Shown: positions 21,038-61,958, counted from the first letter of the stretch. The stretch is 64,000 nucleotides of DNA from an uncultured delta proteobacterium (GCA_963760795.1 CAVXEP010000029.1:224001-288000), one strand, 5' to 3'. Translations and numbers: made by a program. Notes: generated by a model not told the origin, from the sequence alone.

Positions 21038-21039
21038 TT

Positions 21040-21564: not shown

Positions 21565-21576
21565 AAAATTCCAAGC

Positions 21577-23130: not shown

Positions 23131-23154
23131 TGTTTTATTCGAACAGGTTCACGG

Positions 23155-23443: not shown

Positions 23444-23517
23444 AGGCGCTAATTGACCTGCGACGCCTGACGTGGTGGCTGGCTTAAGCGGGGAAGCGCG
23501 CCGACCAATTTCTCAAG

Positions 23518-24009
23518 TTAAGTTTCTACATTCGCTTGGCTAGTGGCCGCGTGGGACAGCTCGGTCTGTGACCGAACCCCGGACCACCAGACCAGGGCGA
23601 TGAAGAGCACCTGAAGCGCGACTCTCGGTATCAGCGGTGTCGCAGGCGCGCCACGGAGCGTGACGCCCGACTGTGCAGCGTAAATGTTTGCCGGCAACAC
23701 GGCGACGAGAAACAGCACTAGCGCCACCGCAGCAAGGCGACGTGTCTGTGGCACGAGGAGGCCGATGGCACCGAGTATCTCGCAAAATCCTGTAAATGAG
23801 ACGATGAATTCGGCATTGGGCACCTGGGGCGGCACCATCCGTATCAGGTCAGGCCGCATGCTGTTGAAGTGCGCAGCGGCGGTAAAGCAGAACATTACTG
23901 CCAGGCCGACTCTTGTAGCGGTGGCCCAATCCCGCAGCGCTGTCACGCCAAGCTGGCCGATTAATCGCGCGAGTACAGTGACGACGATCAGAATGATCAG
24001 CGGTGCCAT
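23518..24009 (-). CDS. DoxX-family membrane protein
   Basis: AAHF..MVPP..TGFCEILGAIGLL..LPANI motif. Confidence 0.85.
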   Translation of the reverse strand: MAPLIILIVVTVLARLIGQLGVTALRDWATATRVGLAVMFCFTAAAHFNSMRPDLIRMVPPQVPNAEFIVSFTGFCEILGAIGLLVPQTRRLAAVALVLFLVAVLPANIYAAQSGVTLRGAPATPLIPRVALQVLFIALVWWSGVRSQTELSHAATSQANVET

Positions 24010-24154
24010 GATCTGGTTGCGAATCTTTCTTTCTCGGTCTGAACAAAGATAGCAAACTTCTCACTGGAAAACGCCGGTGGAAACCAGCGGACTGGCGGTC
24101 ACGGCGAGCGTGCCTTTGCAGGATATTGCGGGTGCCACTTGCGCAGTTAAAAGC

Positions 24155-27100
24155 TTACTCTTTGGAGCTGCCCTTTTTGAGTTGCGGATTCGGATTGCGC
24201 AGTGCGGCCAGATAGGTTGTCCGCGGACGGGTGTTGAGTTCTTCGAGCAAGCTGTAATTGCGCGGATCGGCTTTTAGGGCCGCGACTTTGCTCTTCGGAT
24301 CGTTGAGATCGCCGAAGACGATGGCCTCGGCGGGACAGGCTTGCTGGCAGGCGGTGACGATCTCGCCGTCCTTGACCCGCCGCCCTTCTTTCTCGGCTTC
24401 GATCTTGCCCTGGTTGATGCGCTGCACGCAGTAGGTGCATTTTTCCATGACGCCGCGGCTGCGCACGGTGACATCCGGGTTGCGCTGCGCTTTCAAACTC
24501 TCGATGTTCCAGTCGGAAAATTGCAAAAAATTAAAGCGCCGCACTTTGTACGGACAGTTGTTCGAGCAATAGCGCGTGCCGACGCAGCGATTGTAGACCA
24601 TGTCGTTGAGTCCTTCGGCGCTGTGCGCCGTCGCAGCCACCGGGCAGACCACTTCGCAGGGCGCATTCTCGCAATGCATGCACGGCACCGGTTGGACAAA
24701 GGTTTGCGGATCGTCCGGTGTGCCTGTGAAATAGGTATCGATTCGCAGCCAGTGCATTTCCCGCGAGCGCAGCACCTGGTCTTTGCCCACCACCGGAATA
24801 TTATTTTCCGACTGGCAAGCCACCACGCAGGCATTGCAGCCGAGGCAGGCGTTGAGATCGATGGACAGGCCCCACTTGTAGCCGTTGTACTCGTACTGCG
24901 GATAAAGCGAGGGGTGTTCCGACTCGCCCTGGGCAAAGTTGGGCTTGGCGACAAACTCCTCGAGGGTTGCCGCGCGGACGATGTCGCGTCCCTCGAGAGC
25001 GTGGTGAATCTGCGTCGCCGCCAGTGCCAAGCGCTCGCCGGATTTGCCGATCTCGGCGCCGCGCGCCGACCACAGCGCGTCGGCGGTGCGCAAGCGGTAA
25101 GCATCGAAGCCCACGCCGCGGCCCACCGGACCGACGCGGCTGCGGCCGTAGCCCAGCTGCAATTCTATCGTATCCTCGGCCTGTCCCGGGACAATCCATA
25201 CCGGCGCGCGCACCGTGCGGCGGTTCAATCTGACCTCGATCACGTCGGCATCGACGTTGCCGCCGCGCAAGCCGACAGCGGTATTGAGCCCCAATCGATT
25301 TGCCGTGGCGGGACTCAGATAGGCGGCGTTGTCCCAGGTGAGCTTGGTGAGCGGCTTGGGCAGCTCCTGCAACCAGCCGTTGTTGGCAAATCGGCCGTCG
25401 AAGAGGCCCGGGTCGGGCCGGAACACGAGTTCCAGAGACTTGGGATTTTGCCGTTGCGCATCGGCGGCGTCGGCAGATTTTGAATTTTGCATTGGTAATT
25501 TGCCATCCGCGCTCTCGCCCCCTGGCAAATTGCGCAACTGAGGATTGGGACGAGGCAACAGCGCTCGCAGCCAGCTTTGGCGTCAGCGGTTTTGCTGCAA
25601 ACGCGCTATCTTCGACAAGGCCGTCGTGCAGACTCTTGCGCCACCAGCGCGTGAAATCGCCTTCGGCTTTGCCTGTCTGTTTGCGCCAGTGCTCCCTGAC
25701 AATGTCGTAGCCGGACTGTGCCGGCTGCGCACTCAACGCGGCAAGCAATTCATGGGCGGTTCGGCCTTGGTAGAGGGGCGCGATGAGCGGTTGTAAAATC
25801 GTCGCCGTGCCGTCATAGGCGCGCGCGTCGCTCCACGATTCGAGATAATGCGCGGCAGGGATATGCCACTGGCAAAGCGCGGAGGTCTGATTGATCTCGG
25901 AGCTCAGATGGACGCGCAGCGCGACTTTGGCCAGGCCTGCGGCAAAATCAAGATCGGCCGGCGCGGTATAGACCGGATCGCCCTCGATAATAATCAACGT
26001 CGACACCGCGCCACGCGTCATATCTTGCGTCAGTTCGCGCAACGAAGCGATTTCGTTCACCGGATCCGCTTGCACCGGTTCCGTGTACACGACCGTCTGT
26101 CCGACATTACCTAAAGAATGGTTGATGGCGTGGGCGAGGGCGTGCACGGCGATCGGTTGCGCTTCGCTAACCAAGACGAGACTCTTGCCGCGATGCTGCT
26201 GCAAATCGGCCGCGACCGCGCTGAGCCAGCGCTCATGGTCGGTCGTAAGCTGGCCGCCGCTGGCGCCCAATCGCGCCGCCAAGGCACGCGCGAAGGGTTC
26301 CATCGCGCTGGGCGGTAGCGCGAGCCGGTGATCGGCCTGGGCGCCAGCGCTGCTTGGGCTCGATTCAATCGCATACAAACGATTCATTGCCGGCGCGCCA
26401 CCGCCGACGCGGCGCCGCCGGGCGAAGTCATGAGCGTAGCGCAAATAACCGGGACTGCATGACAACAGATCGGCGCCGAAAGCAAGGATGATATCGGCTT
26501 TGTCCAAACGATACTGGGTTTGCGCATAGCTACCGAAGGCGAGCAGAGCGCCGGCGCGGGTATGGTGGCAGCCTGCGGGTTCCCACTGATGCCATCTTGC
26601 CGCCGGGTACTCTTTTAAAAGCCCGCGCAACTGCTCGGCTAAAGTCGGCGAGCTGACGGCGCCGGTGAGGATTCTCAAGCCCCGGCCTTGAGTTTTTTTC
26701 TCCTGTTCAAGGACCGCGCGCAGGGCTACGACAAAGGCGTCCCACGGCCGGATTTTCCCCCCATAGGTGGGGGTTTGTGCGCGCGCCGGGTCCCACAGAT
26801 CGAGCACCGATGCCTGGGCATAAACATCGGTGGCGCCGAGACTGGCGGGATGCAGTGGATTGCCTTCGACCTTGGTCGGCCGGCCCATGTGGCTTTCGAC
26901 CAATAACCCTGTGGCCAAACCGGCGAGCGGCATGGCGGTGGCAAAATACAACGGTTGGCCGGGGACGATTTCTTCCGGTTGGCGAACGTAGGGCACGATG
27001 GTCTCGGTCGGCGCGCGGGCGCAGCCGGCGATTCCGGCCAGTGCCAGCGAAGCACCCATGAGTTTCAAGAAGCGGCGCCGGCTCACCGGATCGAGCGCGA

Positions 27101-27191
27101 CGTCGACCTGGCTGGAATATTCGCGCCGGATAAATTCGCGAAACTCTTCGGTATCGGCAAATTCTTCTAGCGTGCGCCAGTAGTTATTCAT
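24155..27191 (-). CDS. actB: Alternative complex III subunit B (Tat-exported molybdopterin-oxidoreductase-like domain plus Fe-S domain); +1 frameshift in the 25440-25560 linker
   Basis: SRRRFLK Tat motif, GRPTKVEGNPLHP, CLGCNAC..C, CMHCENAPC..C, CVGTRYC..C, KCTYC..C. Confidence 0.93.
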
Positions 27192-27232
27192 CGTCGTACG
27201 CGATTGAACGGTTTCAACCGGGCCAGAAAGTA

Positions 27233-27892
27233 TTATCTGTGACAGGTCGAGCAGCTGGTCAGCTCACGCGGGTTGCGGATGTTGTATTGCTTGACCAATT
27301 GCCGTCCGAGTACGCGTTGTTCGCGGTCCGGTCGCCAATTCATGTTGAAAACCTGCTCGCGCGGGCGCAGGTATTGTTCCGGCGCACGATGGCAGTTGAG
27401 GCACCATTCCATCTGCAGAGTTTGGTCCTGCCACATGAGCGGCATGCGATCGACAGGGCCATGGCAGGTGACGCAGCCGACGCCCTTCCATACATGGATA
27501 CTGTGATTGAAATAAACGAAGTCGGGAAGGTTGTGCACTCGGGTCCAGCGGATCGGCGTACCGGTTTGAAAACTATCGCGCAGCGGTTTCAAGACATCGC
27601 TGCCGGACCAGATTTGCGAGTGACAGTTCATGCAGGTTGCGGTGGGCGGTATGCCGGCGAACGACGAAACTTCTACCGCCGTGTGGCAGTAACGGCAGTC
27701 GATGCCCAAACCGGCGACGTGATGCTCGTGGCTAAACGGCACCGGTTGCGCGCGCACGACATCGGTCTCGGTAATATAAGAAGAACGGGAAATAGCCGCG
27801 ATCAGCCAAAGGACCGCGCCAAGCAAAAACACCAAACCAAAAATACTTAAGCGGGCGATGGTGTTAGTGCTGCGATGAAAAATTTGAGACAT
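27233..27892 (-). CDS. actA: Alternative complex III subunit A, pentaheme cytochrome c
   Basis: N-terminal TM; five CxxCH (CRYCH, CMNCH, CVTCH, CLNCH, CSTCH). Confidence 0.95.
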   Translation of the reverse strand: MSQIFHRSTNTIARLSIFGLVFLLGAVLWLIAAISRSSYITETDVVRAQPVPFSHEHHVAGLGIDCRYCHTAVEVSSFAGIPPTATCMNCHSQIWSGSDVLKPLRDSFQTGTPIRWTRVHNLPDFVYFNHSIHVWKGVGCVTCHGPVDRMPLMWQDQTLQMEWCLNCHRAPEQYLRPREQVFNMNWRPDREQRVLGRQLVKQYNIRNPRELTSCSTCHR

Positions 27893-32098: not shown

Positions 32099-33848
32099 AT
32101 GGCCAATACCGCAGCTGATATTCTGCTCGATACGATATCCGATTGGGGCGTGGAAGTTATTTTCGGACTTCCCGGCGATGGTATCAACGGGATCATGGAA
32201 GCTCTGCGCAAACGCAAAGATAAAATCCGTTTCATTCAGGTGCGCCACGAGGAATCGGCGGCATTCATGGCCTGCGCCTATGCCAAGTACACCGGCAAAC
32301 TCGGAGTGTGCCTAGCGACTTCCGGCCCAGGCGGCATTCATTTGTTGAATGGCCTATATGACGCCAAGCTCGACGGCCAGCCGGTGCTGGCGATCACCGG
32401 TCATCATTTTCACGATTTGATCGATACTCATGCCCAGCAAGATGTCAGTCTTGACCGCCTATTCATGGATGTTGCGGTTTACAACACGCGCGTGATGGGA
32501 GCGGCCCATGTCGAAAATATCGCCGATCTCGCCTGCCGCACCGCGCTGGCTTATCGCGGCGTCGCGCACATAAATTTTCCCGTCGATCTTCAAGAACAGG
32601 AAGCCGGTGAACGCTCGAAGCGCAATGTGCCGGGCCATACCTCGGATCGCTGGGCGCGCCATGCCCAACTGCCGGCCCAAGCGGATCTCGATCGTGCTGC
32701 CGAAGTTCTCAACGGCGGCAAGAAGGTGGCGATTTTATGCGGGCGCGGCGCTCTCGATGCCACCGACGAGTTGGAAGAGATGGCGGAAAAACTAGCCGCG
32801 CCGATCATTAAGGCTCTGCTCGGCAAAGCGGCGGTGCCGGACGACAGCACTTATACTACCGGCGGTATCGGCCTGCTCGGCACCAAACCGTCGCAGGATG
32901 CGATGGAAAGCTGCGATACGCTGCTGATGGTCGGAACATCGTTTCCGTACATCGAATTCTTACCCAAGCCGGGTCAGGCGCGCGCCGTGCAGATCGATCT
33001 TGACCCGGTGCGCATCGGGCTTCGTTATCCGGTGGATGTCGGCTTAGTCGGCGACAGCCGGCGCACGTTGCGGGCGTTGATAGCCAGCTTGCAGCGCCAA
33101 GAAGATCGCAGCTTTCCTCGAAAAGGCGCGCGCCGGCATGGCGGAGTGGTGGAAGCTGATGGAAGAGCGCGGCAGCCGCGCCGACCGGCCGATGAAACCG
33201 CAGGTCGTCGCCTGGGAGCTCGGCAAGCGGCTCGCCGATAACGCCATCGTCTCATGCGATTCGGGAACGGTGGCGACATGGTTTGCGCGCCAGATCCGCG
33301 CCCGGCGCGGGCAGATGTATTCGCTGTCGGGTAACTTGGCGAGTATGGCTAACGGTCTGCCTTACGCCATCGCGGCGCAGATCGCTTATCCGGAGCGGCA
33401 ATCTATCGCTTTCGTCGGTGACGGAGGGTTTTCCATGCTGATGGCCGAATTTGTCACAGCGGTAAAATATCGCTTGCCGATCAAAGTTGTGGTCATCAAA
33501 AATAACACCTTGGGCATGATCAAATGGGAGCAGATGGTTTTTCTCGGCAACCCCGAATATGGCTGCGAGCTCGAGCCCATCGATTTCGCCAGTTTTGCCC
33601 GCGCTTGCGGCGCCCAGGGATTTACCATCGACGATCCGGCGCAGTGCGGCGCGATCCTCGATCAGGCTCTCGAAACGCCCGGCCCGGTATTGATCGAAGC
33701 GGTGGTCGATCCGTTCGTGCCGCCGATGCCGGCCAAGGTCACCCTCGAGCAAGCGGCTCATTTTGCCGAGTCCCTCGCGCGCGGCGAACCCAACCGCAGC
33801 AAAATTGCCTGGACGGTGCTGTCGGACAAGGTGCGCGAGCTAGTTTAA
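32099..33848 (+). CDS. Pyruvate oxidase/dehydrogenase (ThDP/FAD, PoxB family); +1 frameshift near 33117
   Basis: FGLPGDG, VRHEESAAF, TSGPG, GDGGFSM..NN ThDP motif, split over two ORFs. Confidence 0.9.
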
Positions 33849-46141: not shown

Positions 46142-49100
46142 TCACCTGCGCGGCTCTTTGCCGTCGAGAATGCGGTGCAGTCGCTCGTGATCGATCGGCT
46201 TGACTAAATGATAGTCGAAACCGGCGGCGCGCGAGCGCTCACGGTCTTCGTCGCGGCCCCAGCCGGTTTGGGCGATCAAAACAGTCTTTGGCAAAGCGCG
46301 GCTGCTCGCGTATCTGACGGGCGACATCGTAGCCGCTCATGCCGTGCGGCAAACCGATATCGATGAGCGCGTAGTCAGGCACGAAGTCCGCCAGTACCGC
46401 CAGCGCCTCTGGCCCATCGTTGGCGGTTTTGACTTCATGGCCGTCGAGCTCCAGCAGCATGGACAGCGACGTGGCCTGCATCTTGTTATCGTCGACGATG
46501 AGAAGTTTTTTGTGCTGCTGCGCCGGCCGGGGTTCAGCCTCCGGCTTGCGCTTCCGCTGGCAGCGGAGCTTGCGTCATCAGCGGCAGCCGGACGATGAAT
46601 ACGCTGCCGCGATTAATTCCCTCGCTATGCGCCTGGACGCTGCCGCCGTGCAGATCGACCAGATTTTTGACCAGAGTTAGGCCGATGCCGAGGCCGCCGC
46701 CCTCGGTGGTGCGCTCTCCCTGGCTGAACATTTCAAATGCGCGGCGCAATAGTTCGTTAGACATGCCGACGCCGTCGTCGCTCACGCTGACGACGACCTG
46801 GCCCTGCTCCCTTTCCGCGGCGATGCGGATGGCGCCGCCTTCGCGGGTAAATTTGGCGGCATTGATCAGCAGGTTGGAAAACACTTGCTCGAGCCGGGCG
46901 CGGTCGGCCTCCACCCAGAGTGGGTCATCGGGCAAGTCTACTTGCAGGCGATGATGCTTTTCATCGAGATAGGGTTGGCTGGTTTCGATCGCTTCACCGA
47001 TGATTTGGGCGAGCTCAAGCGGCTGCTTGCGCAAGGCGAGACGGTTGCGCGTCAGCCGGCTGACGTCAAGGAGATCTTCCAACATGCGCGCCATTTGTTG
47101 CACCTCGCGGCCGATGATATTCAAGCTCGTCTGGAATTTGGGCTCGGCGTTGCTGAAGCTACGCAGGATTTCCACCGCATTGCTGATCGGCGCCAGCGGA
47201 TTGCGCATTTCGTGGGCGAGCAACGCGACAAACTCGTTTTTCTGACGGTCGGCTTCTTTGAGCTCTGCGACGCGATCCTCTAACGCGGCTGCGGTTTGCT
47301 TCTGAGTGCTGATATCGAAGCAGACTCCGCTAAGGTATGCCGGCGCGCCCGCGCCATCGGTGACAACTTTGGCCGTCGTCAAAAGCCAGCAGATCGCGCC
47401 GTCGGCGCGCAAGAAACGCAACTCCTCGGAAAAAACGCCGGTTTCCAACGCCTGGCGCCGGGCGGCGCGCAGCTTTTCCCGATCGTCCGGATGAATCCGG
47501 CTGAAGAATCCCTCGCCGTTGCTGCCCGGTTCCGCCGGCAGACCAAGCAGCGCATGGATTCTTTCGTCCCAATGCAAGCGATCGGTCTTGAGATCGCAAT
47601 ACCAGGTGCCGAGGGAGCCGCCTTCGAGCGCCAGACGCAAGCGTTCTTCTTTTTCACGCAGCGCCTGCTCGGCATTTTTCATATCGGTGATATCGATGGC
47701 GGAGCCGACGTAGCCCAAAAAGTCGCCGGCGTCGGAGAGGCGCGGCACGCCGAGGGAATTCATCCAGCGGTATTCACCGTCATGGCGGCGCAAACGAAAG
47801 TTGGCTTCGAACGGAACGCGCTGGTTCATCGCGCGTGCGTAATTGTCGACAAGCGCATCATGATCTTCGGGATGGATGTAACGCGACCAGACTTCGCCCT
47901 GCAACTCGGCTGCGCTGCCGGCGCCGACAAATTGTCTGAAGGCTTTATTGACGGATTCACCGCCGTCAACGCCCTTGAGCCAGATGATTACCGGCGCGCT
48001 TTCGGCAAGCAGGCGGAAACGCGCTTCGCTTTCGCGGATCGCTTCGGCGCTCTTTTTGATATCGTCGATATCGATCAAAAGCATTACCGCGCCTTCGATC
48101 TTGCCATCGGCGGTGCGGTAGGGATGGATCCGCAGGCGATGCCAGCGCCCGTCGGCATCGCGCACTTCGCGCTCGCGCACCTGCACTTGATTGATGACTT
48201 CACGGATCAAATTATCGAGGTCGGCGATGTCGATGTTGGTCTTTAAATCGCTGAGCGGGCGGCCGATGTCGTTGGCGCGCAGGTTAATCGACCGGCACGC
48301 GGCTTCGGTATAGCGCCGGATGCGCAGGTCGGGACCGACCATGACCATCGGAATGGCCATGCTGGCGAGCAGGTTGGTCAAATCGTTGTTGACCTCGTTG
48401 AGCTCGAGATTGCGAGTGTGCAGCTGCTCGTTGACCGTCGTCAGTTCTTCATTGGTGGACTGCAGCTCCTCCTTGGCGGTTTCGAGCTCCTCGTTGGTGC
48501 TTTGCAATTCTTCGTTGCTGGAGAGAATTTCCTCGTTGGCCGAGCGCAGCTCTTCGTTGGCGGCGTCTTGCTGTTCGAGCAGTGACTGCAAGTATTCTTT
48601 GATCGCGACGAGCTCGCGGCGCAGTTGCACGACCTCGCGTTCTTCTTCAATCAGAGCTGCCTGAGACAGAGGCTGGCGCGCATCGCCATGGGTATCCGCG
48701 GCGCGCCCCGACCCCGGTGTCTCATTGAACAAAACCAGAAAACAGGTTTCGTGGCTGCCCGGCGGCCGCACCGGTACCACCTCGAGATCGATGCTGCGGC
48801 TGTGCGCCATCGACACGCAGGCGCACTCCCTGGCGGCGCACCGATCGATGTTGCTTGCGCACCTCTTCGATGGCGCTGCGCAGTTCCAGGAATAATCCTT
48901 CGCGCGCCATCTTGAGCAAATTGGTGGTGGGCTCGCCGGAAGGCAACTCCAGATATTCCCCGGTGCGGCCGCGAAACTGGAGGATGTCGAGATTGTCATT
49001 GACGAGCACGCCGGGCGGCGCATAGCGCCCGAGCAGAAGCCGGTCGACTTCGCGATGAAAATCCAGCGGCGTCGACGCCGGCGCCAGGCTGCGCTTCTCG

Positions 49101-50662
49101 GTCAAATGGCCGATGTGGCGAAAATCGTCCGGCGCGAAATTAATAATCGGCCGGTTCGCCGTCGGTCTTTTGGCGTAAATTTTGTTCGTTCGGTCGGTGA
49201 CATCGAATAGATCGAGGTGGTCGCCGATCGATTCGGAGCTGCCGAGCACGAGAAAGCCGGGCGAGTTGAGGGCGTAATGAAACGTCGGCAAAACCCGCTT
49301 TTGCAGCGGCGGCGACAGATAGATCAGCACGTTGCGGCAACTCACGATATCGACATGGGAAAAGGGCGGGTCCAAGGTCAGGTTCTGGCGCGCAAAGACG
49401 CACAGATCGCGCAGCGATTTGTCGATTCGGTAGACATGCTCCTCCTTTTGAAAAAAACGTCTCAAGCGCTCGGGACTGACCTCGGCTTCGATACTATCGG
49501 GATAAATGCCGGCGCGCGCTTTGTCGAGGGACGTCGGCTCGCTGATATCGGTGGCGAAGATCTGAATCGGCGGCCGGCTCGGTTTATTATCGAAGTACTC
49601 GAGCAAGCTCATGGCGATGGAATAGGCTTCCTGGCCAGTGGAGCAACCCGGAACCCACACGCGTATGGTCGCTAACGGTGGCTTGCCATTGATGATTTCC
49701 GGGTAAACTCGCTCTTTCAAGGCATCGAACAAAGCCGGATCGCGAAAAAAACTGGTGACGTTAATTAAAAGATCGTGGTAAAGCGCCTTGACCTCTTCCG
49801 GGTCTTTCTCCAGGCGCGGGATATAGTCGCCAAGGCTGTCGTGGGTATGCAGCGCCATGCGCCGCATGATGCGCCGTTTGATCGTCGTGTCGCGATACAA
49901 CGTGAAATCGACGCCGGTGACAGCGCGCACCCGGGTTAAAATTTTTCGGTATTGGCTTTCGCCATCCTCGTCGATAATCGGCGCGGTGGTTGGGCAGATC
50001 AGATAGGGGTGGGTGCGGATCTGCGCCAACCGGCGGGCGATTTCCTGGGGCTCCAGGATCAGATCGGCGCAGCCGCTCTCGGCGGCGCTGTGCGGCATGC
50101 CGCTAAACTTGGCCGAGCGCTCGTCTTGCGCGAAAGTGATGCCGCCCATCGCCTTGATCTCGCAAACCCCTTGGGCGCCGTCGGATCCGGTGCCGGATAG
50201 AACGATGCCCACGGCATATGTCTTTTGGTCTTCCGCCAGGGAGCGAAAGAAAAAATCGATGGGCAGATGGAGCCCGCGTGTCTCGGCGCGCGGCGATACT
50301 TGAAGCTTTCCCTCGACGATCGCCAGATTCACATTGGGCGGAATAATATAGACGTGATTGGGCTCGACTTTTTGCGCGTGTGCCGCTTCGCTGACCGGCA
50401 TTTGCGTAAAGCGAGCCAATAAATCGACGAGCCGGCTTTCATGATGGGGATCGAGATGTTGGATCAAGACGAACGCCATGCCGGTGTCGTCCGGAAGATG
50501 CGTGAGCAGTTGCTGATAGGCTTCGAGACCGCCCGCCGACGCGCCGATGCCGACGATCGGAAACGAGCCGTTGCCGTTATCGGCATCGGTGACCGCGCCT
50601 TTGTCGTGCATTTCCGGCACCGGAAATGACGACTCAGGATCGTTAGGATTACTCGAAGTCAA
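46142..50662 (-). CDS. CheB-CheR-coiled coil-PAS(x3)-HisKA-HATPase-REC fusion; three +1 frameshifts (near 48805, 46545, 46292)
   Basis: CheB GASAGG/QHL/GSDG; Che[24 protein letters not shown]; NEELQST heptads; AHEMRNPL; REC split across the last two ORFs. Confidence 0.9.
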
Positions 50663-52313: not shown

Positions 52314-53444
52314 ATGAAAACTAATTTACTTCGCCTGTTTTTTTTACTATGCGCCGTTCCGCATGCCGCCGGTCAGGCGCCGAGTTCGCCGCAACCGAAG
52401 CCGGTTGAAGGCGGGTTGCGGGTGACGACTGTCGCCAAAGGATTGGAACATCCCTGGGCTCTCGAATTTCTACCCGACGGACGCATGCTCGTCAGTGAAC
52501 GGCCGGGACGCTTGCGCGTCATCGATCGTAACGGGCGCGTTGCCGAGCCGTTGGCCGGCGTGCCCAAAGTGGTCGCGCGCCGGCAGGGCGGGCTGCTCGA
52601 TATCGCGCTATCGCCTAGCTTCGCCCAGGACCGGCTCATTTATTTTTCCTTTGCCGAAGAGGGCGAGGGCGGCGCCGGCACTGCGGTGGCGCGTGGTGTT
52701 TTGGCCGAGCGGGCGCTGGAAAAAGTCCAGGTGATCTGGCGCCAGCTGCCTAAAGTCAAGGGTGATAATCATTTCGGCTCGCGTCTGCTGTTCGGCCGCG
52801 ATGGCAATTTATTCGTTACTTTGGGCGATCGCTTCGCTTACCGTGATCAGGCGCAGAATCTGGCGGCCACGTTGGGCAAAATAGTCAGAATCCAACCGGA
52901 TGGCGGCATTCCGAAAGACAATCCATTTGTCGGGCGCGAAGGCGTGCGGCCGGAGATCTGGTCCTATGGCCATCGTAACGTGCAAGCGGCGACGCTCCAC
53001 CCGGAGACCGGACAACTGTGGACCGTCGAGCATGGCGCGCGCGGCGGTGACGAGCTGAATCAGCCGCAGCCGGGCAAAAATTATGGCTGGCCGGTGATTA
53101 CCTATGGTGTCGATTACTCCGGGGCCAAAATCGGCGAAGGCACCAGCAAGCCGGGCATGGAACAACCGGTTTATTATTGGGACCCGGTGATCGCGCCGTC
53201 GGGGGCATTGTTTTACACCGGCAAAGCGTTCCCGCAATGGAACGGTAATCTGCTGATCGGTTCGTTGCAGCCGGGCCAGTTGGTGCGGCTGGAAATGACC
53301 GCCGGGCGCGTTAGCAACGAGTATCGTTACGCCGGCGACCTGGGCGCGCGAATACGCGACGTGCAGCAAGCGCCGGACGGCGCGATCTACGTCATCACTG
53401 ACGAGAACAACGGCAGAATTCTGCGCGTCGAACCGGCGAAGTAA
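52314..53444 (+). CDS. PQQ-dependent soluble aldose sugar dehydrogenase (YliI/Asd family)
   Basis: Signal peptide; LEHPW, QGGLLD, HFGSRL, SYGHRNVQ, EHGARGGDELN, GKNYGWP, RIRDV. Confidence 0.94.
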   Translation: MKTNLLRLFFLLCAVPHAAGQAPSSPQPKPVEGGLRVTTVAKGLEHPWALEFLPDGRMLVSERPGRLRVIDRNGRVAEPLAGVPKVVARRQGGLLDIALSPSFAQDRLIYFSFAEEGEGGAGTAVARGVLAERALEKVQVIWRQLPKVKGDNHFGSRLLFGRDGNLFVTLGDRFAYRDQAQNLAATLGKIVRIQPDGGIPKDNPFVGREGVRPEIWSYGHRNVQAATLHPETGQLWTVEHGARGGDELNQPQPGKNYGWPVITYGVDYSGAKIGEGTSKPGMEQPVYYWDPVIAPSGALFYTGKAFPQWNGNLLIGSLQPGQLVRLEMTAGRVSNEYRYAGDLGARIRDVQQAPDGAIYVITDENNGRILRVEPAK

Positions 53445-53586: not shown

Positions 53587-54843
53587 GTGGCATGCAAAAT
53601 TTCCTCTGCTAACACGCTCTGGCGCTGCACATTTGAGCGGCCGTGTTGCCCGCACGCTCCGATAAATCCCTTTACTATTTTTGCGTTCTTTGCGGCTAAT
53701 ATTCCGTTCCGGATCTTTTTCGGTTTCGTTTTCGCGCTGAGTAGTTGGAGCTGCGATGGACCGCAGTCGGCGCTCGACCCGGCCGGTCACGGCGCCCAGT
53801 GGATTGCCGATATTTTCTGGTGGATGACCGGTTCGGCGACAGTTATCTGGTTCGGGGTTATCATCCTAGCGATCTGGGCGGCGCGCAGCGCGCCGGAAAA
53901 GCAAAACCGGCGGCGCACTAATATAATGATCATTGGCGGCGGCGCCGTAGTGCCCACCCTGGCGCTGGCGCTGCTGCTGCTTTATGGCCTGGCGCCGATA
54001 CCGGCGTTACTCGCCCCCGCGCCTCCGGGCAGCCTGCAAATCGATGTCTCCGGCGAGCAGTGGTGGTGGCGCGTGCATTACCGCCCGCCCGGCGCCGCCG
54101 TTGTGACCGTCGCCAACGAAATCCGTCTTCCGGTCGGCGCGCCGGTGCAGTTTCATCTAGCAAGTCCCGATGTCGTCCATTCCTTTTGGATACCGCCGTT
54201 GGGCGGCAAGATCGACATGATTCCCGGCCGTGTCACGCGCCTGGTTCTGACGCCCACACGCAGCGGAACTTTTCGCGGCGCCTGTGCCGAGTACTGCGGC
54301 ACCTCCCACGCGCTGATGGCGTTTCCAGTCGTGGTGATGGAACCCGCGGACTTTGCCCGCTGGCTGACGGCGCAAGCCCTGCCGGCGCAGGCGCCCACGA
54401 CCGCGCTCGCTGCGCGCGGATTGGCGGCGTTTTTGGAAAGCGGCTGCGGCGCTTGCCACAGCATCCGTGGCACATCCGCCGCCGGCGTCATCGGGCCTGA
54501 TCTCACCCATGTCGGCAGCCGGTTGAGTCTCGGCGCAGGAATTTTGCCGAACACGCCGGAGGCGTTCGTGCGCTGGCTCAAGCATGCGGATAAGTTAAAA
54601 CCCGGAGTGCACATGCCGGTTTTTGGCATGCTGCCCGAACCCGAGTTGCAGGCAGTGGCGGCGTATCTGGACGGACTTAGAATGATGAACACGTTCAAAT
54701 CGTCCAAGCCGTTCAATCGCTGCGCTCCGTTCAAGCCGTTGTCGGAGGTTGCAATAGTTAAACCATCTTGCCAACTCGTTCTTCGTCCCGTTCTTCCGCG
54801 TATTAAACAGAGCGAAGCGGTTGAACGAAGCGTTAGCGATTGA
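53587..54843 (+). CDS. coxB: Second heme-copper oxidase subunit II with fused cytochrome c (start and C-terminal tail uncertain)
   Basis: QWWW, HSFW..CAEYCGTSHALM CuA site, CGACH..GPDLTH..M. The last ~50 codons run through repeat copy F. Confidence 0.92.
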   Translation: MACKISSANTLWRCTFERPCCPHAPINPFTIFAFFAANIPFRIFFGFVFALSSWSCDGPQSALDPAGHGAQWIADIFWWMTGSATVIWFGVIILAIWAARSAPEKQNRRRTNIMIIGGGAVVPTLALALLLLYGLAPIPALLAPAPPGSLQIDVSGEQWWWRVHYRPPGAAVVTVANEIRLPVGAPVQFHLASPDVVHSFWIPPLGGKIDMIPGRVTRLVLTPTRSGTFRGACAEYCGTSHALMAFPVVVMEPADFARWLTAQALPAQAPTTALAARGLAAFLESGCGACHSIRGTSAAGVIGPDLTHVGSRLSLGAGILPNTPEAFVRWLKHADKLKPGVHMPVFGMLPEPELQAVAAYLDGLRMMNTFKSSKPFNRCAPFKPLSEVAIVKPSCQLVLRPVLPRIKQSEAVERSVSD

Positions 54844-54848
54844 ACCGT
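54690..54848. repeat. GTTCAA-family inverted repeat (copy F)
   Basis: 54711-54740 matches 18661-18690 at 29/30 nt; right arm GCGTTAGCGATTGAACCG. Confidence 0.85.
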
Positions 54849-54857
54849 GTTGCAATC

Positions 54858-57393
54858 ATGAAGAGACCCGATCCTCAACCGTTAGCCGAACCATTGCCCG
54901 TCGAACAGCGGCGGGCGCAAGCCGAGCGACTGATGCGTACCTGGGAGACGCCCTGCCGGTTGGCGCTATTGGTCGTCGGTCAACAATCAGGACGTTGGTT
55001 TGTGGTACACCGGGCTGACGTTTATCTTCCTGCTCTTCGGCGGCGCGCTGGCGCTGTTGATGCGTATCCAGCTCGCCGTGCCCGATAACGATTTTCTTGC
55101 CGCCGAAACCTACAACCAAGCATTCACCGTGCATGGCTCGGTGATGATGTTCTTGTTCGCGATTCCGATCTTCGAAGCGATCGCGGTGTTGTTTTTGCCG
55201 CAAATGCTCGGCGCGCGCGACTTGCCGTTTCCGCGTCTTTCGGCATTTGGCTTTTGGTGTTTTCTGCTCGGCGGCGTGTTTCTTTGCGGGTCGATCTTCT
55301 TCGATGCCGCGCCGCGCGGCGGCTGGTTCATGTATCCGCCGCTCACTTCCAAGTATCAGCCCGACATCGGCGCGGATATTTGGCTATTGGGGTTTTCTTT
55401 CATCGAGATCGCCGCCATCGCCGCCGCCGTCGAGATGATCGTCGGCTCGCTCAAGACCCGACCGCCCGGCATGCGCCTTAATTTAATGCCGCTGTATGTT
55501 TGGTATGTGCTGGTCGCCGCGGTGATGATCGTCTTCGCTTTTCCGCCGTTGATCGCCGGCAGCATGCTGCTCGAGCTCGAACGCGCTTTTGACTGGCCGT
55601 TCTTCAATCCCGAGCGCGGCGGCGATCCGCTGCTCTGGCAACATTTGTTCTGGCTCTTCGGCCATCCCGAAGTCTACATCATTTTTTTGCCCTCGGTGGC
55701 GCTGATCGCGATGATCGTGCCGACTTTCGCGCAGCGCCCGATAGTCGGCTACAGCTGGATCGTGCTGGCCGCGGTGGGCACCGGGTTTCTGAGTTTCGGC
55801 CTGTGGGTGCATCACATGTTTACCACCGGACTGCCGGGCATCACTCTCGGAATATTTGCCGCCGCCTCGCAGGCGGTGGCGCTGCCCACCGGCGTGCAGA
55901 TTTTCTGCTTCATCGCCACCCTCGCCGCCGGGCGAGTGGTGCCGTCGGTGCCGATGCTCTGGGCCTTCGGCAGCCTGGTGATTTTCGTGCTCGGCGGCTT
56001 GACCGGCGTGATGGTGGCAGTGGCGCCTTTCGATTTTCAAGCTCACGACACGTTTTTCGTCGTCGCGCATTTACATTACGTCTTGATCGGCGGCGCGCTG
56101 TTTCCGATCTTTGCCGGTTGCTATTATTTTTACCCCTTGATCAGCGGCAAGCTGCTCTCCGATAAATTGGCCAAGATCGCTTTCTGGCTGGCATTTATCG
56201 GATTCAATATTGCGTTTCTGCCGATGCATGTGACCGGCCTGCGCGGCATGCCGCGACGGGTTTTTACTTACCCCGCGGGAATGGGTTTCGATGGGCTGAA
56301 TCTGGCCTCGACCATCGGCGCATTTATTCTCGCCGCCGGCGTCGCGCTGATCTTCTGGGATCTATTCCGGCCAAAGCGCCATCAACCCTATGCGGAGCGC
56401 AACCCGTGGCGCGCCGGGACCATCGAGTGGACTCAAGAAATGCCAGCCCAGCCCTGGGGCATTCGCTCGATTCCGGAAATCGATAGCCGATATCCATTGT
56501 GGGACCAGGCGAATTTCATTCGCGACATCGACGAGGGCAGATTTTATTTGCCGGATGCGGAGGAAGGCCGGCGCGAAACGATCATCACCTCGGTGCTCGA
56601 TGCCGAGCCGCAACAATGCGCGCGCCTGCCGGGGTCCACTTTCATCACGTTATGGGCGGCGCTTGGCACCGGCGGTTTTTTTATTTTTGGCACTTATCAT
56701 TGGTGGACCGCGGCGCTGATCAGTCTGATGGCCGGGCTGGTGGTGATTATCTTCTGGTTATGGACGGGCACCGGGCAAATTCCCGAGAAAGAAAGCAAAG
56801 ACGTCGGTCTCGGATTGACCTTGCCGCTATATCTCTCGGGGCGGGAGTCGGTGGGCTGGTGGGCGATGTTCATCACCATGCTGGCGCTGTTCACGGCCTT
56901 TATCTGTCTGGTCTTCGGTTATTTCTTCTACTGGACGGTGCGCGACGACTTTCCACCCGAACCGACCCACGGCCCAGGGGTTTTCTGGCCGGTCGTCGCA
57001 GCGGCGGCGATGCTTGGCTCCTGGGCGTTAACGCTTTTGAGCGTGCGCTGGAATCGTCTCGACAACGCCCCGGCCTTTTACCTGGGCCTCGGGTTGGCGA
57101 TTTTTTTAAGCGCCGCCGGCGCAGCGGCGCTGCTCGCGGGTCCGTGGCGCACCGGCCTTGACCCGGCGAGCCATGTCTATGGTGCAACCGTTTGGATCCT
57201 GGTGATCTGGGCCGCGGTGCAGGCGCTGCTCGGCATCATCATGCAGCTTTACTGCATAGCGCGCCGCCTCGCCGGACGCATGACCGCGCGCTACGACATG
57301 GACATTCACAACGTGGCACTGTACTGGCATTTCACCGCGCTGACGGCGGCGATCACGGTGGCGGTGATTGCCGGATTTCCGCTACTCTTATGA
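54858..57393 (+). CDS. coxA: Second heme-copper oxidase, subunit I fused to a subunit III-like domain; +1 frameshift near 54953
   Basis: TVHG, GHPEVY, WVHH, HDT..AHLHY, GMPRR; C-terminal GWWAM..ALYWHF; corrected N-terminus WETPAGWRYWSSVNN. Confidence 0.92.
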
Positions 57394-57395
57394 TG

Positions 57396-57555
57396 AATTT
57401 TGGATTTTCGATTTTGGATTAAAGAATAACTATGATGAGGCGAACAGCGTGCAATTACTCGGTCTTTGAATGCCATGGAGCCACGACTTTCTGGCAGATT
57501 CGCTTGCTCGCGGTATTTCCGATAATCCAAAATCCAAAATCTAAAATCCAAAATT
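57396..57555. repeat. Inverted heptamer tandem repeat (ATTTTGG / CCAAAAT)
   Basis: AATTTTGGATTTTCGATTTTGGATT (57396-57420) and AATCCAAAATCCAAAATCTAAAATCCAAAATT (57524-57555). Confidence 0.85.
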
Positions 57556-57579
57556 GTTCAATGGTGCAGAGCAAAACCA

Positions 57580-57963
57580 ATGGCGACCAAAGACTTTCCA
57601 GAGCACAAAGATAACATTTTACTGCTCACCCTGGGGCCGCTGATCTGGGCGGCGCACTTGCTGTTGAGCTACGGCACGGCGTCGATCTGGTGCGGCAAGA
57701 TGGTTGAGACCGGCGGTTCTCTTGGCGCCGTTCGCGGCGCGATTGTTGTGTACACGTTGGCCGGACTTGCGGCGACTGCCGTGGTCGCCTGGATGGGCTA
57801 TCGCCGGCATCGCACCGGCGCGGCTAGTTTGCCGCACGACGACGATTCACCGGAAGACCGTTATCGTTTTATCGGTTATGCAACTTTTTTGCTGGCTTGT
57901 TTAAGCTTCGCAGCGATCGCTTACGCCGGCTCGATCACGCTGTTTTTTCGGAGTTGTTATTAG
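57580..57963 (+). CDS. Three-TM membrane protein of the second oxidase operon
   Basis: GPLIWAAH..Y...C, PHDDD..DRYRF; position suggests an accessory or subunit IV-like role. Confidence 0.75.
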   Translation: MATKDFPEHKDNILLLTLGPLIWAAHLLLSYGTASIWCGKMVETGGSLGAVRGAIVVYTLAGLAATAVVAWMGYRRHRTGAASLPHDDDSPEDRYRFIGYATFLLACLSFAAIAYAGSITLFFRSCY

Positions 57964-57975
57964 ATGGAAGACAAG

Positions 57976-58145
57976 GCCGTTCAAAACGTTCAACCGCTGC
58001 GCTCCGTTCAAGCCTTCAAACCCCCACCTGTGTCCTCCCCCGCGGCCGCGGGGGAGGAAGGGATCGGGAGGTTAAAACCTCATAGACTGACGGAGCGTTA
58101 GCGTTTGAACGGAACGAAGTGATTGAACGAGACGAAGTAATTGAA
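57976..58145. repeat. GTTCAA-family inverted repeat (copy G) with a nested CCTCCCCCGC/GCGGGGGAGG palindrome
   Basis: GTTCAACCGCTGCGCTCCGTTCAAGCC ... GAGCGTTAGCGTTTGAACGG..GATTGAACG. Confidence 0.85.
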
Positions 58146-58808
58146 ATGACCCGGCCAATTATTTTCATCATCGCTGTGCTCACGCTTGCGGCTCTCTGGT
58201 TGACGCCTTGGGCTTCGTTGGGCATGGCGCCGTTTAGCGCGCATATGGTCGTGCATATGGGGATCGTCGCCGTGGCGGCGCCGCTGTTGGCGCTTGGGGT
58301 TGCCGGCAGCGCTGTCGATCCGGTAGCGCGCTTGCCCGCGCTGTTTCCGCCGATTCCGGTGTCGCTGGTGGAATTTATCGTCGTGTGGGCTTGGCACACG
58401 CCCGCGCTGCATCACGCCGCGCGCCACCCCGGTCTCGCGTCGCTTGCCGAGCAGGGCATGTTTTTACTCGCCGGGCTCTGGCTCTGGCTGGCGGTTTTCG
58501 GCGGTACTGGCGACGAGCGCCGCGGCCGGGCTGGCAGCGGAGTGATTGCGCTGCTGCTGACTTCCATGCACATGACCCTGCTTGGCGCGCTCTTGGCTCT
58601 GGCGCCGCGGCCGCTATTCACACATGGCACGGCGGATGCGACGCTCATGGCCCAAGATGCCCTAGATACCATAGCTGCGCTCGCTGACCAGCATCTGGGC
58701 GGCGCCATCATGCTGCTGGTCGGTGGCGTTGCCTATCTCGCCGGCGGGCTGTGGCTGACGGCGGGGTTATTGCGCAGGGTGGATTATCGGCGGAGGGCAA
58801 GGGCATGA
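58146..58808 (+). CDS. ctaG: caa3-type oxidase assembly factor (Caa3_CtaG)
   Basis: FSAHMVVH..APLL, WAWHTP, DQHLGGAIM. Confidence 0.85.
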   Translation: MTRPIIFIIAVLTLAALWLTPWASLGMAPFSAHMVVHMGIVAVAAPLLALGVAGSAVDPVARLPALFPPIPVSLVEFIVVWAWHTPALHHAARHPGLASLAEQGMFLLAGLWLWLAVFGGTGDERRGRAGSGVIALLLTSMHMTLLGALLALAPRPLFTHGTADATLMAQDALDTIAALADQHLGGAIMLLVGGVAYLAGGLWLTAGLLRRVDYRRRARA

Positions 58809-59909
58809 AAACCTGGCTGTGGCGTGGCGCGCTCGTGCTTACGCTGCTTGGCATGTTGGGAGGTCTCGTCATGCTCTCCGGGATCGTGCCGATCAAAGCC
58901 AGCTCGGGCCACTGGGCGATTACCGCCTGGCTGCTGGATTTTTCCAAACAACGCTCGGTCAGCACGCATACTCTTGGCGTGAAGCCGCCGCCGCTTGACG
59001 ATCCGCGCATGGTGGTCAAGGGCGGTGCTTACTACGATATCGGCTGCCGTCCTTGCCATGGCGGCCCGGAGTTGCGCCAGCCGAGAATCGCGGCGCGGAT
59101 GACGCCCCCTCCGGTCTATCTGCCGCCGCGCATCGCCAACTGGGAAGCCGAGGAGCTTTTTTACATGATCAAACACGGCATCAAGTTCACCGGCATGCCC
59201 GCCTGGCCCGCGCCCGGTCGCGACGATGAGGTCTGGGCGATCGTCGCGTTCCTCAAGCGCCTGCCGATTTTGAATGCCGCAGAGTACGCGCGCGTGACAC
59301 GGGGTGAAACCGCGGACGACGGCATGGACGCGCCGCTGCGCGCGCTGGCAGCCCAAATCGGTTGCGGCGCGCCGCGCAGTGAGCGAAAACTGTTCGCGCT
59401 GTCACGGCGCCGACGGGATGGGCAGGGACGGCGCCTCGCCGGTTATCGCCGGTCAACAGGCAGCGTATATTTTCGCGACTCTCGACGCCTATGGGCGCGG
59501 CCGACGCCACAGCGGCATGATGGAACCGATCGCCGCCGGTTTGAGCGCGCAAACGATGAGCGAACTTGCGCATTTTTACGCCGGGCTTGCGCCCGCTTCG
59601 CGATCCGCCAGTCCCGACAGCGCCGCCATCGCGCGCGGGCGGGCAATCGCCCTGGGCGGCGTGGCGCAAAACAAAGTCCCCCCTTGTGCGGAGTGTCATG
59701 GTCCGGGCGCGCGCCGCCGCAATCCATTCTATCCCGATCTTGCCGGACAGCATGGCGATTATTTGGTACTTCAATTGCAGCTCTTCAAAGCCGGCAAACG
59801 TGGCGGCACCGCTTACGCGCACCTGATGCAACATGTCGCGCCGCACTTGAGCGAAGCGCAAATGCGCGACGTGGCGGCATATTATAGTGTTGGGAATAGC
59901 AAGGATTAG
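58805..59909 (+). CDS. Membrane-anchored triheme class I cytochrome c; +1 frameshift near 59350
   Basis: CRPCH..GIKFTGMPAW in the first ORF; CSRCH and CAECH (c4-like pair) in the second. Confidence 0.85.
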
Positions 59910-60136
59910 GAATCAAAAACTTAGAAAAACCGTGATGGCTGATGCCGCCTGAAATGTAGTGAACGTCCTAGCTGTCCTGTTATTGGGACAGAATCCGGCT
60001 TGGTGCCTCTTAATGTATTGCGAGTTTTGTCTTGCGGACAGGATTTGTTTTGATAGTAATAGAATTCTTTCGGCGCGAGATATCGTTCGAGTGAGCGCTC
60101 GGCGATCGCAACTCGTCGGTGGAGCGTTTAACGGTT

Positions 60137-61958
60137 ATGGCAAAGCGAATGAACCAATCTAAAGCAGCCTTTACCGGCGCTGGCCAAGGCACCCACCGGT
60201 ATCGGCGGTTTGGACGAAATCACCGGCGGCGGCTTGCCGCGCGGCCGCACCTCGCTTATCGCCGGCACCGCCGGCGCCGGCAAAACTCTTTTCGGCATGG
60301 AGTTTATCTACCGCGGCGCCACCGCAGTTCGGCGAGCCCGGCGTGGTCATGGCCTTCGAGGAGAGCGAAACCGAGTTGATCGAGAACGTCGCCAGTCTCG
60401 GCTTTGATTTCGACGCGACTGATCAAACGCAACCAGCTGGCGATCGATTTTGTCCGGGTCGAGCGCAGCGAGATCGAAGAGACCGGCGAATACGATCTCG
60501 AAGGATTGTTTATCCGCCTGGGCCACGCCATCGATAAAGTAAAAGCCAAGCGCGTCTTGCTCGACACCATCGAAGCGCTGTTCGCAGCCTTGCCCAACGA
60601 AGGTGTCTTGCGCGCCGAGTTGCGCCGGCTGTTTCGCTGGCTCAAAGAGCGCGGCGTCACCGCCGTAATCACCGCCGAACGCGGCGGCGGCGCGCTAACC
60701 CGCCACGGCTTGGAAGAGTATGTTTCGGACTGCGTCATTTTGCTCGACCATCGGGTGATCGAACAGGTGTCGACCCGGCGTCTGCGTGTGGTCAAGTACC
60801 GCGGCACGACTCACGGCACCAACGAGTATCCGTTCCTGATCGATGCCGGCGGGATCTCGGTATTGCCGGTGACGTCGCTTGGTTTAAATCATGAGGCTCC
60901 CACCGAGCGCATCTCTTCGGGAATCGCCCGGCTCGACGCCATGCTTGATGGGCAAGGGCTACTACCGCGGCGGCAGTGTGCTGATTTCCGGCACGCCCGG
61001 CTCGGGCAAGAGTTCGCTCTCGGCGCACTTTATCGAGGCCGCGTGCGCGCGCGGCGAGCGCTGCATGTATTTTCCCTTTGAAGAATCGCAGCAGCAGATC
61101 GTGCGCAATATGGGCTCCATCGGCATCGATCTCGGCCGCTGGGTCGAGCGCGGCTTGTTGCGTTTCCACCCGGCGCGGCCGCAAGTTCAAGGCTTGGAGT
61201 CGCACCTGGCGCTGATGCTCAAGCAGATCGGCGATTTCGATCCCGCGGTGGTGGTGATCGATCCGGTGACCACTCTCACCGAAATCGGCAGCTCGCTGGA
61301 AGCCAAAACCATGCTCGTGCGCCTGGTGGATTTTTTGAAATCGCGGAAGATTACCGCGCTGTTGACCAGTCTGACCAGCGATCAAGACAATCCGGAAAAG
61401 ACCGAGGTTGGCATCTCGTCGTTGATGGACACCTGGCTCTTGTTACGCAATCTGGAAATGAACGGCGAGCGCAATCGCGGCCTGTATATTTTAAAGTCCC
61501 GCGGCATGCCGCACTCCAATCAGATCCGCGAGTTTACGTTGACCAACCACGGCGCCCAATTGCGCGAAGTCTACGCGGGAGTCGCCGGCGTCCTGGCCGG
61601 CACCGCGCGGGTGGCGCAAGAGGCGCGCGAGCGCGCCGAAGCGCTGGCGCAGCAGCAGGAGATCGAGCGCAAACAGCGCGAACTCGAAAGCAAGCGTTTA
61701 GCCATGGAAGCGCAAATCGCTTCACTGCGCGCTGCCTTTACCAGCGAGTCCGCTGAGATCGAGAAAGCCGTGAACGATATGCGCATTGCTGAAGACCTCA
61801 TGACTGGAACGCGCGCTGTGCTCGCCGGTTTGCGCGGCGCCGATGCTGATGGAAAGTCCGGCAAACCTCGAAGGAAAGGAGTAAACCATGGCGGTGAACG
61901 AAGAAACGGCGGTAAAGCGAACGGGCGCAAAGACCGGCGCGGCACCCTCGTCGAATAA
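60137..61958 (+). CDS. kaiC: KaiC (double RecA-like ATPase) with a C-terminal coiled coil; four +1 frameshifts (near 60170, 60324, 60410, 60952)
   Basis: [45 protein letters not shown]; [24 protein letters not shown]. Confidence 0.92.

Follow-up and report, generated by a model that had tools for sequence, protein, structure and literature searches.

A putative caa3-type haem-copper oxidase with glutamates and a glutamine at conserved proton-channel positions, encoded by a widespread five-gene cassette

How protons are gated between chemistry and pumping in haem-copper oxidases is still argued from few model enzymes and point mutants. In the Pereira/Sousa classification (PMC3084760, Table 2), the A family is described by the residues of a D channel (D124, N199, N113, N131, Y35, S134, S193 and E278 in Paracoccus denitrificans, Pd) and of a K channel (K354, T351, S291 and Y280). 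The accessible parts of the same work and of PMC11214002 present the B (ba3) and C (cbb3) families as single-input-channel-like and without the lysine. In the A-type oxidases of iron-oxidising acidophiles and of related organisms such as Thioclava, K354 and E78 of subunit II are replaced; as far as the available text of the two reports goes (bioRxiv 10.1101/2020.03.01.968255; PMC8239418), the lysine gives way to a hydrophobic residue such as Ile and the D channel is "essentially conserved". Here we describe a five-gene cassette located at 53587-59909 on the + strand of a 64,000-nucleotide stretch of an uncultured delta proteobacterium (GCA_963760795.1, CAVXEP010000029.1:224001-288000; hereafter the window, with positions counted from its first letter). 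By sequence comparison, it encodes a caa3-type A-family cytochrome c:O2 oxidoreductase of a deep, widespread and biochemically unstudied branch. Its genes encode, in order, subunit II with a cytochrome c domain (CoxII-c), subunit I with a subunit-III-like domain (subunit I+III), a membrane protein of 127 aa, CtaG and finally a cytochrome c with three haems (trihaem cytochrome c). The host assembly comprises 6.58 Mb in 35 contigs (88.9% complete, 6.2% contaminated) and has two COX1 genes besides that of the cassette, one of them located earlier in the window.

The subunit I+III gene (54859..57393, + strand) matches Pfam COX1 (1.5e-141) and TIGR02891 (680.1 bits; cut-off 670.75). Its codons are numbered here from the TTG at 55000. 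Read directly, they hold the six histidine ligands of haem a, haem a3 and CuB (H45, H222, H271, H272, H357 and H359); the HPEVY motif (55663..55677), in which H222 is a CuB ligand, E224 corresponds to E286 and Y226 to Y288, the cross-link tyrosine (Tyr-I); H349-D350-T (HDT); and R419-R420 (RR). Channel columns carry the Rhodobacter sphaeroides (Rs) names N121, N139, N207 and K362, which we take to apply from the motifs of that enzyme, and the Pd numbers presumably differ from these by a constant offset of 8. The naming is supported by the Pd residue list of Sousa et al. 2011 (PMC3084760) and, in part, by the Pd/Rs equivalences in the accessible text of PMC7196763.

Around these motifs, the residues of both proton channels are exchanged. 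The D-channel entry is kept as D74 (= D132; 55219..55221), and V63 (FEAIAVLF; 55186..55188) is found at the position of N121, S81 (FPRLSAF; 55240..55242) at that of N139, G84 (55249-55251) at that of S142 and E145 (AAAVEMI; 55432..55434) at that of N207. Two more glutamates are present: E59 (FEAIA; 55174..55176), which lies in helix II and precedes the N121 position by four residues, and E136 (IEIAA; 55405..55407), which lies in helix IV and precedes the N207 position by nine residues and S201 by three, with A138/A139 occupying S200/S201. In the K channel, T297 (= T359) is kept, and Q300 replaces K362 (PTGVQIF; 55888..55899 for the two residues, CAG at 55897-55899); A237 (55708..55710) stands at the S299 (Pd S291) position. 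A sequence-only reading of the window had claimed the intact metal ligands and motifs, the exchanges of K362 to Q, N139 to S, N121 to V and N207 to E, and the additional glutamates in FEAIA and IEIAA. All of these were recovered at the codons given above; the loss of the S299 equivalent is a change that it had passed over. MAFFT alignments to 38 canonical representatives and to both canonical COX1 genes of the host genome leave the motif sites free from gaps, bar a one-residue deletion in helix II, and V63, S81, E145 and Q300 stand opposite canonical N, N, N and K, so the by-eye alignment is in register.

These positions were followed in a close set of 201 sequences, formed by the window, 120 database proteins (76-94% identity) and 80 species-representative genome loci (63-85%); more than 8000 database proteins scored as relatives. 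E59, E136, E145 (Pd N199) and Q300 are each present in 201/201, and the same count holds for each of the six histidines, Tyr-I, the FGHPEVY string with its H, E and Y, RR and HD. The N121 (Pd N113) position is V in 125 and I in 76 sequences, N139 (Pd N131) is S in 194/201, S142 (Pd S134) is G in 198/201, and Pd S193 is A in 141 or S in 60. D132 is kept as D in 183 and as E in 18, Pd Y35 in 199/201, T359 in 200/201, and the S299 position is A in 197/201. Then, only the aspartate, E278 and Y35 remain from the Pd D-channel list, and only T351 and Y280 from the K-channel list. The canonical rows have G 23, A 9 and T 2 at the position of E59, N at that of V63, G 37/38 at E136, N 38/38 at E145, S 37/38 at A237 and K 38/38 at Q300. 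Among 1.84 billion cluster representatives, a search revealed more I+III fusions, 38-48% identical, that carry these three glutamates and the glutamine (EEEQ signature); the signature holds in 21 representatives, down to about 38% identity (E 21/21 at E59, Q 21/21 at Q300). Among the rows listed for these 21 deep representatives, the S299 position is S in 13, A in 4 and a gap in 2.

Since the glutamine and the three glutamates are found in 201/201 sequences with HPEVY intact, the pattern is a conserved signature of a family, not chance or decay. Over 797 codons, the gene differs from its syntenic counterpart in a same-genus genome (G003) by 132 changes that are synonymous and 40 that are not; with a dN/dS of 0.083, subunit I+III is under purifying selection. 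The conservation of Q362, S139 and E207 in homologues, on which the sequence-only reading depended, was found, and its argument against a base-call error stands, given changes conserved in two subunits and this dN/dS. Judged from the alignments, the protein is shown to have a complete catalytic core, of the kind found in O2-reducing A-type enzymes, and this core is under selection.

Subunit II (53587..54843, + strand) combines Pfam COX2 (5.4e-18) and Cytochrom_C (4.3e-07) in one ORF, and reaches 155.5 bits with the NCBIfam CoxB model (cut-off 147.7). Its second transmembrane helix reads IIGGGAVVP (53929..53955) at the site where canonical enzymes have LEIVW with the K-channel entry glutamate. 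This glutamate (E101) had been noticed as missing, and the loss is in fact wider: the columns that hold NDNLTLE in the A2-type subunit II of the window contain residues in 0/78 family sequences, so the segment is absent from all 78. The GG of IIGGGAVVP is nearly invariant (72/78 and 77/78), and the CuA ligands H198, C233, E235, C237, H241 and M244 are kept, with the haem c site CGACH/M343, in 77-78 of the 78.

The best structural match of the enzyme is the caa3 oxidase of Thermus thermophilus (PDB 2YEV), with which it shares the fusion of subunits I and III and that of subunit II with cytochrome c. An AlphaFold2 model of subunit I+III (pLDDT 85.6, pTM 0.88) was matched by Foldseek to 2yev_A with E 1.9e-39 and TM 0.85/0.87 over 812 columns, at 29% identity; the sequence match to this solved chain covers the subunit I part (2.5e-109). 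A profile built from the last 280 residues, at the C-terminus, hits subunit III chains of solved structure (9fks_i, 6.6e-07; 1m56_C, 1.4e-06), while Pfam COX3 gives no match on this domain. The I-III fusion, suspected from sequence alone, is supported by both lines. Thermus caa3 is an A2-type enzyme, with YS in place of E286, canonical D-channel asparagines and the K-channel lysine. Unlike it, the cassette enzyme keeps E286 in an A1-like helix VI motif, without YS, and has a glutamine for the lysine and the series of glutamates. The first oxidase of the window (COX1 at 15130-16734, subunit II at 16769-17737, both on the - strand) shows that same A2 pattern when aligned to 2yev_A. It had been described as retaining every residue in question; its N, D, N, N and K and the glutamate of subunit II are indeed kept, but E286 is lacking because the enzyme is A2-type (YSHPAVY).

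With the aa3 oxidases of R. sphaeroides and P. denitrificans (A1), the cassette enzyme shares HPEVY, D132, all ligands, RR and HD. It differs from them in the replacement of N121, N139, N207, S142, S200/S201, K362, S299 and E101 of subunit II, in two further glutamates, and in the fused subunits, the extra 127-aa protein and the caa3-type CtaG. Its natural E145 sits where N207D was engineered in aa3 mutants. The ligands, Tyr-I, overall sequence and fold are of the A type, as are all the best solved relatives. Compared with the ba3 and cbb3 oxidases, which keep a K-type channel and lack the D channel, here it is the D-type channel that looks functional. A nitric oxide reductase, which according to the accessible text of PMC11214002 has no cross-link tyrosine and has FeB with a Glu ligand or an altered site, is a poor description of a protein with Tyr-I and three CuB histidines in 201/201 and CuA present.

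The K-less oxidases of iron oxidisers are alike in belonging to the A family and in having both the lysine and the subunit II glutamate replaced. The invariant glutamine at 362 and the re-lined D channel set the present family apart from the published descriptions, whose supplementary trees may include it. Loss of the K path in the A family is already known from these reports, as far as their accessible text shows; the branch with glutamine and glutamates would be the new part. No description of this branch was found in the literature searched, most subscription journals lying outside the search. PMC4013037 and PMC6431628 treat operon types and fusions, and, in their accessible text, not the channel residues. 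The databases name these proteins generically, "cytochrome c oxidase subunit I", and models of energy yield in soil bacteria may treat Glu-lined oxidases as textbook pumps.

A quick maximum-likelihood tree was built with 82 rows, the best matches to the subunit I query; it is unrooted and its sampling is biased toward the query. One branch (SH-aLRT 99) separated 34 rows, including all 19 EEEQ rows and 15 derived ones, with lysine at 362 in 0/34, from 48 rows including all 38 canonical. A group of seven rows with I/L/M/A at 362 and intact asparagines falls on the canonical side, apart from the EEEQ family, and would correspond to the published K-less oxidases of iron oxidisers. In the K-less clade, the rows with the full glutamate trio have E/D at 286 in 18/20, the other two being alignment gaps, and D/E at 132 in 19/20. 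Among the rows without the trio, 9/14 are non-acidic at 286, and several also lack CuB ligands or the tyrosine.

Some relatives deserve mention for themselves. In P0146, P0189, P0234 and P0261, from the Lys-less clade, CuB histidines and/or the cross-link tyrosine are lost (AGAAPAH or GGIPQVA, for example, in place of FGHPEVY), and the sites of the glutamates hold Q/V/L/G/A, except for E at the E136 site of P0261 and at the N207 site of P0234. By their sequences, these are probably oxidase-like membrane proteins that no longer reduce O2. P0225 and P0238 have glutamine at K362 with asparagine still at 121 and 207, and branch near the base of the Lys-less clade; P0238 keeps D132 and N139, and P0225 has R and Q there. 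They may be intermediates in which the lysine was lost before the glutamates arose. In P0138, P0159, P0162, P0193 and P0213, tryptophan replaces E286 (HPWVY) and position 362 has no lysine; the D-channel asparagines are kept in the rows covering the region. This is an uncharacterised COX1 variant.

The five genes travel together. A scan revealed the cassette in at least 80 species genomes of more than 10 phyla (loci counts given here are among the matches listed), and six query parts occur in the order of the window in 71/80 loci. From the remaining nine, two end at a contig edge after subunit I, five lack a CtaG match to the query and two lack the last cytochrome part, one of these being cut by the contig end. 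By title, the carriers belong to Binatia, Acidobacteriota, Planctomycetota, Verrucomicrobiota, Gemmatimonadota, Myxococcota, Acidimicrobiia, Bacteriovoracaceae, Rhodothermales and the gamma- and alphaproteobacteria, with cultured strains among them. In the genus of the host, 7/24 other genomes match at E <= 1e-150 (six at 81-97% identity, one at 47%), and there was no cassette match in 16 genomes from two other families of the host order. The cassette is an accessory, mobile unit; subunit I identities of 63-85% across phyla are consistent with lateral transfer under strong constraint. The family is a large one in which the catalytic core has long been kept while residues deemed essential in mutant studies were exchanged, and it offers a natural test of how haem-copper oxidases move protons. 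Some carriers are by title cultured and tractable, such as Stutzerimonas stutzeri, Mesorhizobium, Sinorhizobium and Fulvimarina pelagi.

The gene for the 127-aa protein (57580..57963, + strand) directly follows subunit I, and is found in 78/80 listed loci. The protein has three predicted helices, invariant W23, Y31, C38, S109 and C126 (42 sequences) and a conserved acidic loop, PHD.DT..DR. It belongs to no known family: nothing rose above noise in Pfam (E up to 10), nothing appeared in NCBIfam (E up to 0.01), and the protein-atlas matches were to unnamed "hypothetical protein" clusters only. Complex prediction with subunit I gave a score of 0.75, against 0.00 for the best of three controls, with one of three runs at 0.18; contact agreement among the runs was at least 96% and partner pLDDT at least 65. 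A score of 0.75 is reached by 58/80 solved complexes and 2/110 mismatched pairs, a calibration that holds roughly, as our own alignments were used. The predicted interface on subunit I comprises helices VII/VIII (residues 247-296, with 295-296 beside T297) and the N-side loops 151-162. On this modelling, the protein is a probable extra subunit of the oxidase.

Next follow the gene for a caa3-type CtaG, the CuB insertion factor (58119..58808, + strand; Pfam Caa3_CtaG 1.9e-26; 73/80 listed loci), and that for a cytochrome c with an N-terminal membrane anchor (58805..59909, + strand; Pfam Cytochrome_CBB3 and Cytochrom_C), whose three haem motifs are CRPCH (59045-59059), CSRCH (59391-59405) and CAECH (59685-59699). 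That this last gene is part of the operon, as first proposed from the window, agrees with its conserved place in the gene order across loci; from gene order, the trihaem cytochrome c would be the electron donor to the oxidase. In other phyla the cassette genes are tightly packed, unlike the copy in the window, which bears three spacers: one with a short repeat and CGTTCAA-type inverted arms (54690..54858, no strand; 20 short genome matches), one with TTTTGGA/TCCAAAA-type arms (57394-57579; 45 matches) and one with CGTTCAA-type arms (57964-58118; 24 matches). Summed contig depth over the spacers was 31-121 in runs X1-X3, against mostly <15 in neighbouring bins, with no peak in X4. They may represent a small mobile or REP-like element family of the host lineage.

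For the function of the enzyme, we propose the following path. Electrons would pass from the trihaem cytochrome c to the haem c of subunit II, CuA, haem a and the haem a3/CuB site, where O2 would be reduced. The K path could no longer operate as in textbook enzymes, because the lysine, Ser299 (in the close family) and the entry glutamate of subunit II are all gone. The D path would be rebuilt: its ends, D132 and E286, are kept, and its lining of asparagine, serine and water would be replaced by carboxylates, forming a ladder in the order D74-E145-E59-E136-E224 (= E286). The new glutamates stand at N207, one turn above N121 and near S200/S201, where canonical enzymes have Asn or Gly, and by helix periodicity E59, E136 and E145 would face the channel. 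We give about even chances to the proposal that this one D-type channel, lined with carboxylates, admits most or all of the protons, whether they serve chemistry or any pumping. The fullest form of the proposal, in which the relay carries all traffic including pumping, the glutamine is structural and the three-helix, two-Cys subunit clamps helices VII/VIII, is put forward more tentatively and is rather doubtful. A single D-type input would mirror the K-type-only design of the B and C families. If true, the fullest form would be a third way of delivering protons in haem-copper oxidases, opposite to the single-K design, and a counter-example from nature to the rule by which a carboxylate at the D channel's neck kills the pump.

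That the glutamate trio goes with an acidic 286 residue speaks for a functional D-type path, as a hint drawn from related, non-independent rows. Kinship among these rows is one of several points that weigh against the single-channel proposal. Alignment to known channel positions is the basis for placing the glutamate side chains in the channel. Canonical enzymes that lose K362 show almost no turnover. The invariant glutamine at 362 suggests that the K site still does something, and the small subunit, predicted on helices VII/VIII, could rebuild the K entry there. Finally, the pump of canonical enzymes becomes uncoupled when a carboxylate takes the place of N139 or N207: the decoupling by N139D and N207D cited in the sequence-only reading is in print, with activity maintained in N131D/N139D and N199D/N207D mutants (accessible text of PMC7196763).

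These mutants lead to the view that the enzyme is an uncoupled oxidase, which would reduce O2 and take up substrate protons without pumping, as a sink for electrons or O2. E145 is precisely a carboxylate at the N207 position, and the cassette is accessory in a genome with two further COX1 genes and present in only 7/24 same-genus genomes. However, the elements above the haems used by pumping models (RR, HD and E286) are all kept, each in 201/201, and three invariant buried glutamates exceed the needs of an uncoupling change. The same mutant work, in the part accessible, reports that D132N/N139D restores pumping, so context matters, and a neck carboxylate alone does not predict uncoupling. For the role of sink, nothing ties the operon to a stress regulon, the best flanking family occurring in 9/80 listed loci. 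We consider this view unlikely.

Similarly unlikely, in our judgement, is that two channels persist, with a Lys-less K-type path running through Y226, T297, Q300 and waters and entered by the acidic loop of the 127-aa subunit. Q300 is invariant rather than random, K-type paths without lysine operate in the B and C families (PMC3084760, accessible part), and the predicted complex places the small protein on helices VII/VIII and loops 151-162. On the other hand, glutamine cannot carry a proton, the S299 position is alanine in almost all of the close set, and one of the three complex runs fell to 0.18. The proposal of a single D-type channel remains the reading we favour.

The assembled copy of the operon contains three single extra bases that break its frames, a fact the sequence-only reading did not remark. 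The first lies in subunit II near 54676-54679: the ORF overruns by 55 codons to 54843, the homologues stop directly behind ...YL.GL[EK], a point that falls at about 54681 in the window, and TGATGA follows directly in the +1 frame. In subunit I, the ATG at 54859 opens MKRPDPQP...RTWETP, and an extra base at 54951-54955 shifts the frame after codon 32 (RTWETP/AGWRYW); the remaining frame is open from 54934, with the TTG start at 55000, and has no internal stop before 57393. Homologues of subunit I have 842-856 aa, with N-termini ...WETPAGWRYWSSVNN. The third extra base, at 59349-59354, splits the trihaem cytochrome c between its first and second haem domains. Homologues of this protein are single ORFs of 408-459 codons from stop to stop, and its N and C parts are in one frame in 76/76 other listed loci.

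In four soil-metagenome runs, drawn from two studies, the contigs of closely related organisms (90-99% alike) have one base fewer at 54951 in 4/4 runs and at 59352 in 3/4, the contig of the fourth run starting at 59353. In the syntenic stretch of G003, the extra bases at 54676, 54955 and 59349 are missing, and so are isolated extra bases that the window has at 60327, 60416 and 60952, in the neighbouring KaiC-like gene(s), and at 62656. Pfam domains also show splits across frames in a TPP enzyme (N and M domains at 32099-33241, C domain at 33138-33848) and in the KaiC-like ATPase (60404-61081 / 60891-61958; two or three pieces within 60119-61958). These observations suggest insertion errors throughout the assembly. 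Because relatives lack the extra bases, neighbouring genes are similarly split and dN/dS is low, we consider it likely that the three operon breaks are assembly errors, and the copy is probably intact in the organism. That the window holds a recently inactivated pseudogene cluster, the three frameshifts being real, is improbable. Three independent one-base insertions in a 6.3-kb operon would point that way, the run search found none that contains this exact strain (the highest share of the sampled words in a run is 0.28), and the relatives compared are other strains, 90-97% alike, with which a recent, strain-specific inactivation is compatible. Such a cluster would fit poorly with the isolated extras relative to G003 in neighbouring unrelated genes, the two other split genes, the dN/dS value and a frame that, apart from the extra base near codon 33, is stop-free over 54934-57393. 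The genome-wide count of same-strand overlapping ORFs was tried as a measure of frameshift load and set aside as non-discriminating, because neighbouring genes satisfy it (161 per Mb here, 150 in a complete same-order genome and 160 in a same-genus one). In another part of the window (46534-50662), the ORFs of a CheB/CheR protein and a PAS histidine kinase share about 300 nt, which also looks like a split across frames.

Beyond the five genes there is no conserved flank, the best flanking family reaching 9/80 listed loci. A CaCA-type cation antiporter-like membrane protein adjoins the cassette in 9/80 listed loci, at a median of 99 nt (e.g. L019:3624-4817). A further view, in which another cation such as Na+ would be bound or conducted by the carboxylate ladder and the enzyme would be a differently coupled pump, is highly improbable: several buried carboxylates, some carriers that are marine or halophilic by title (Billgrantia, Fulvimarina, Rhodopirellula) and the antiporter-like neighbour could be read so, but most carriers are by title soil or freshwater lineages, and for a bo3 once reported to pump Na+, later work found proton pumping (PMC6423279, accessible part).

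Directly upstream of the cassette in the window, a gene encodes a secreted PQQ-type glucose/sorbosone dehydrogenase (52314-53444; Pfam GSDH 2e-144), syntenic in G003, whereas no such neighbour of the cassette turned up in the 80 other listed loci. The locus of the first oxidase extends over 14499-27892 on the - strand, where genes with NrfD (22144-23130) and 4Fe-4S (24155-25558) domains adjoin it. Oxidase operons with this kind of neighbourhood have been described as attached to alternative complex III.

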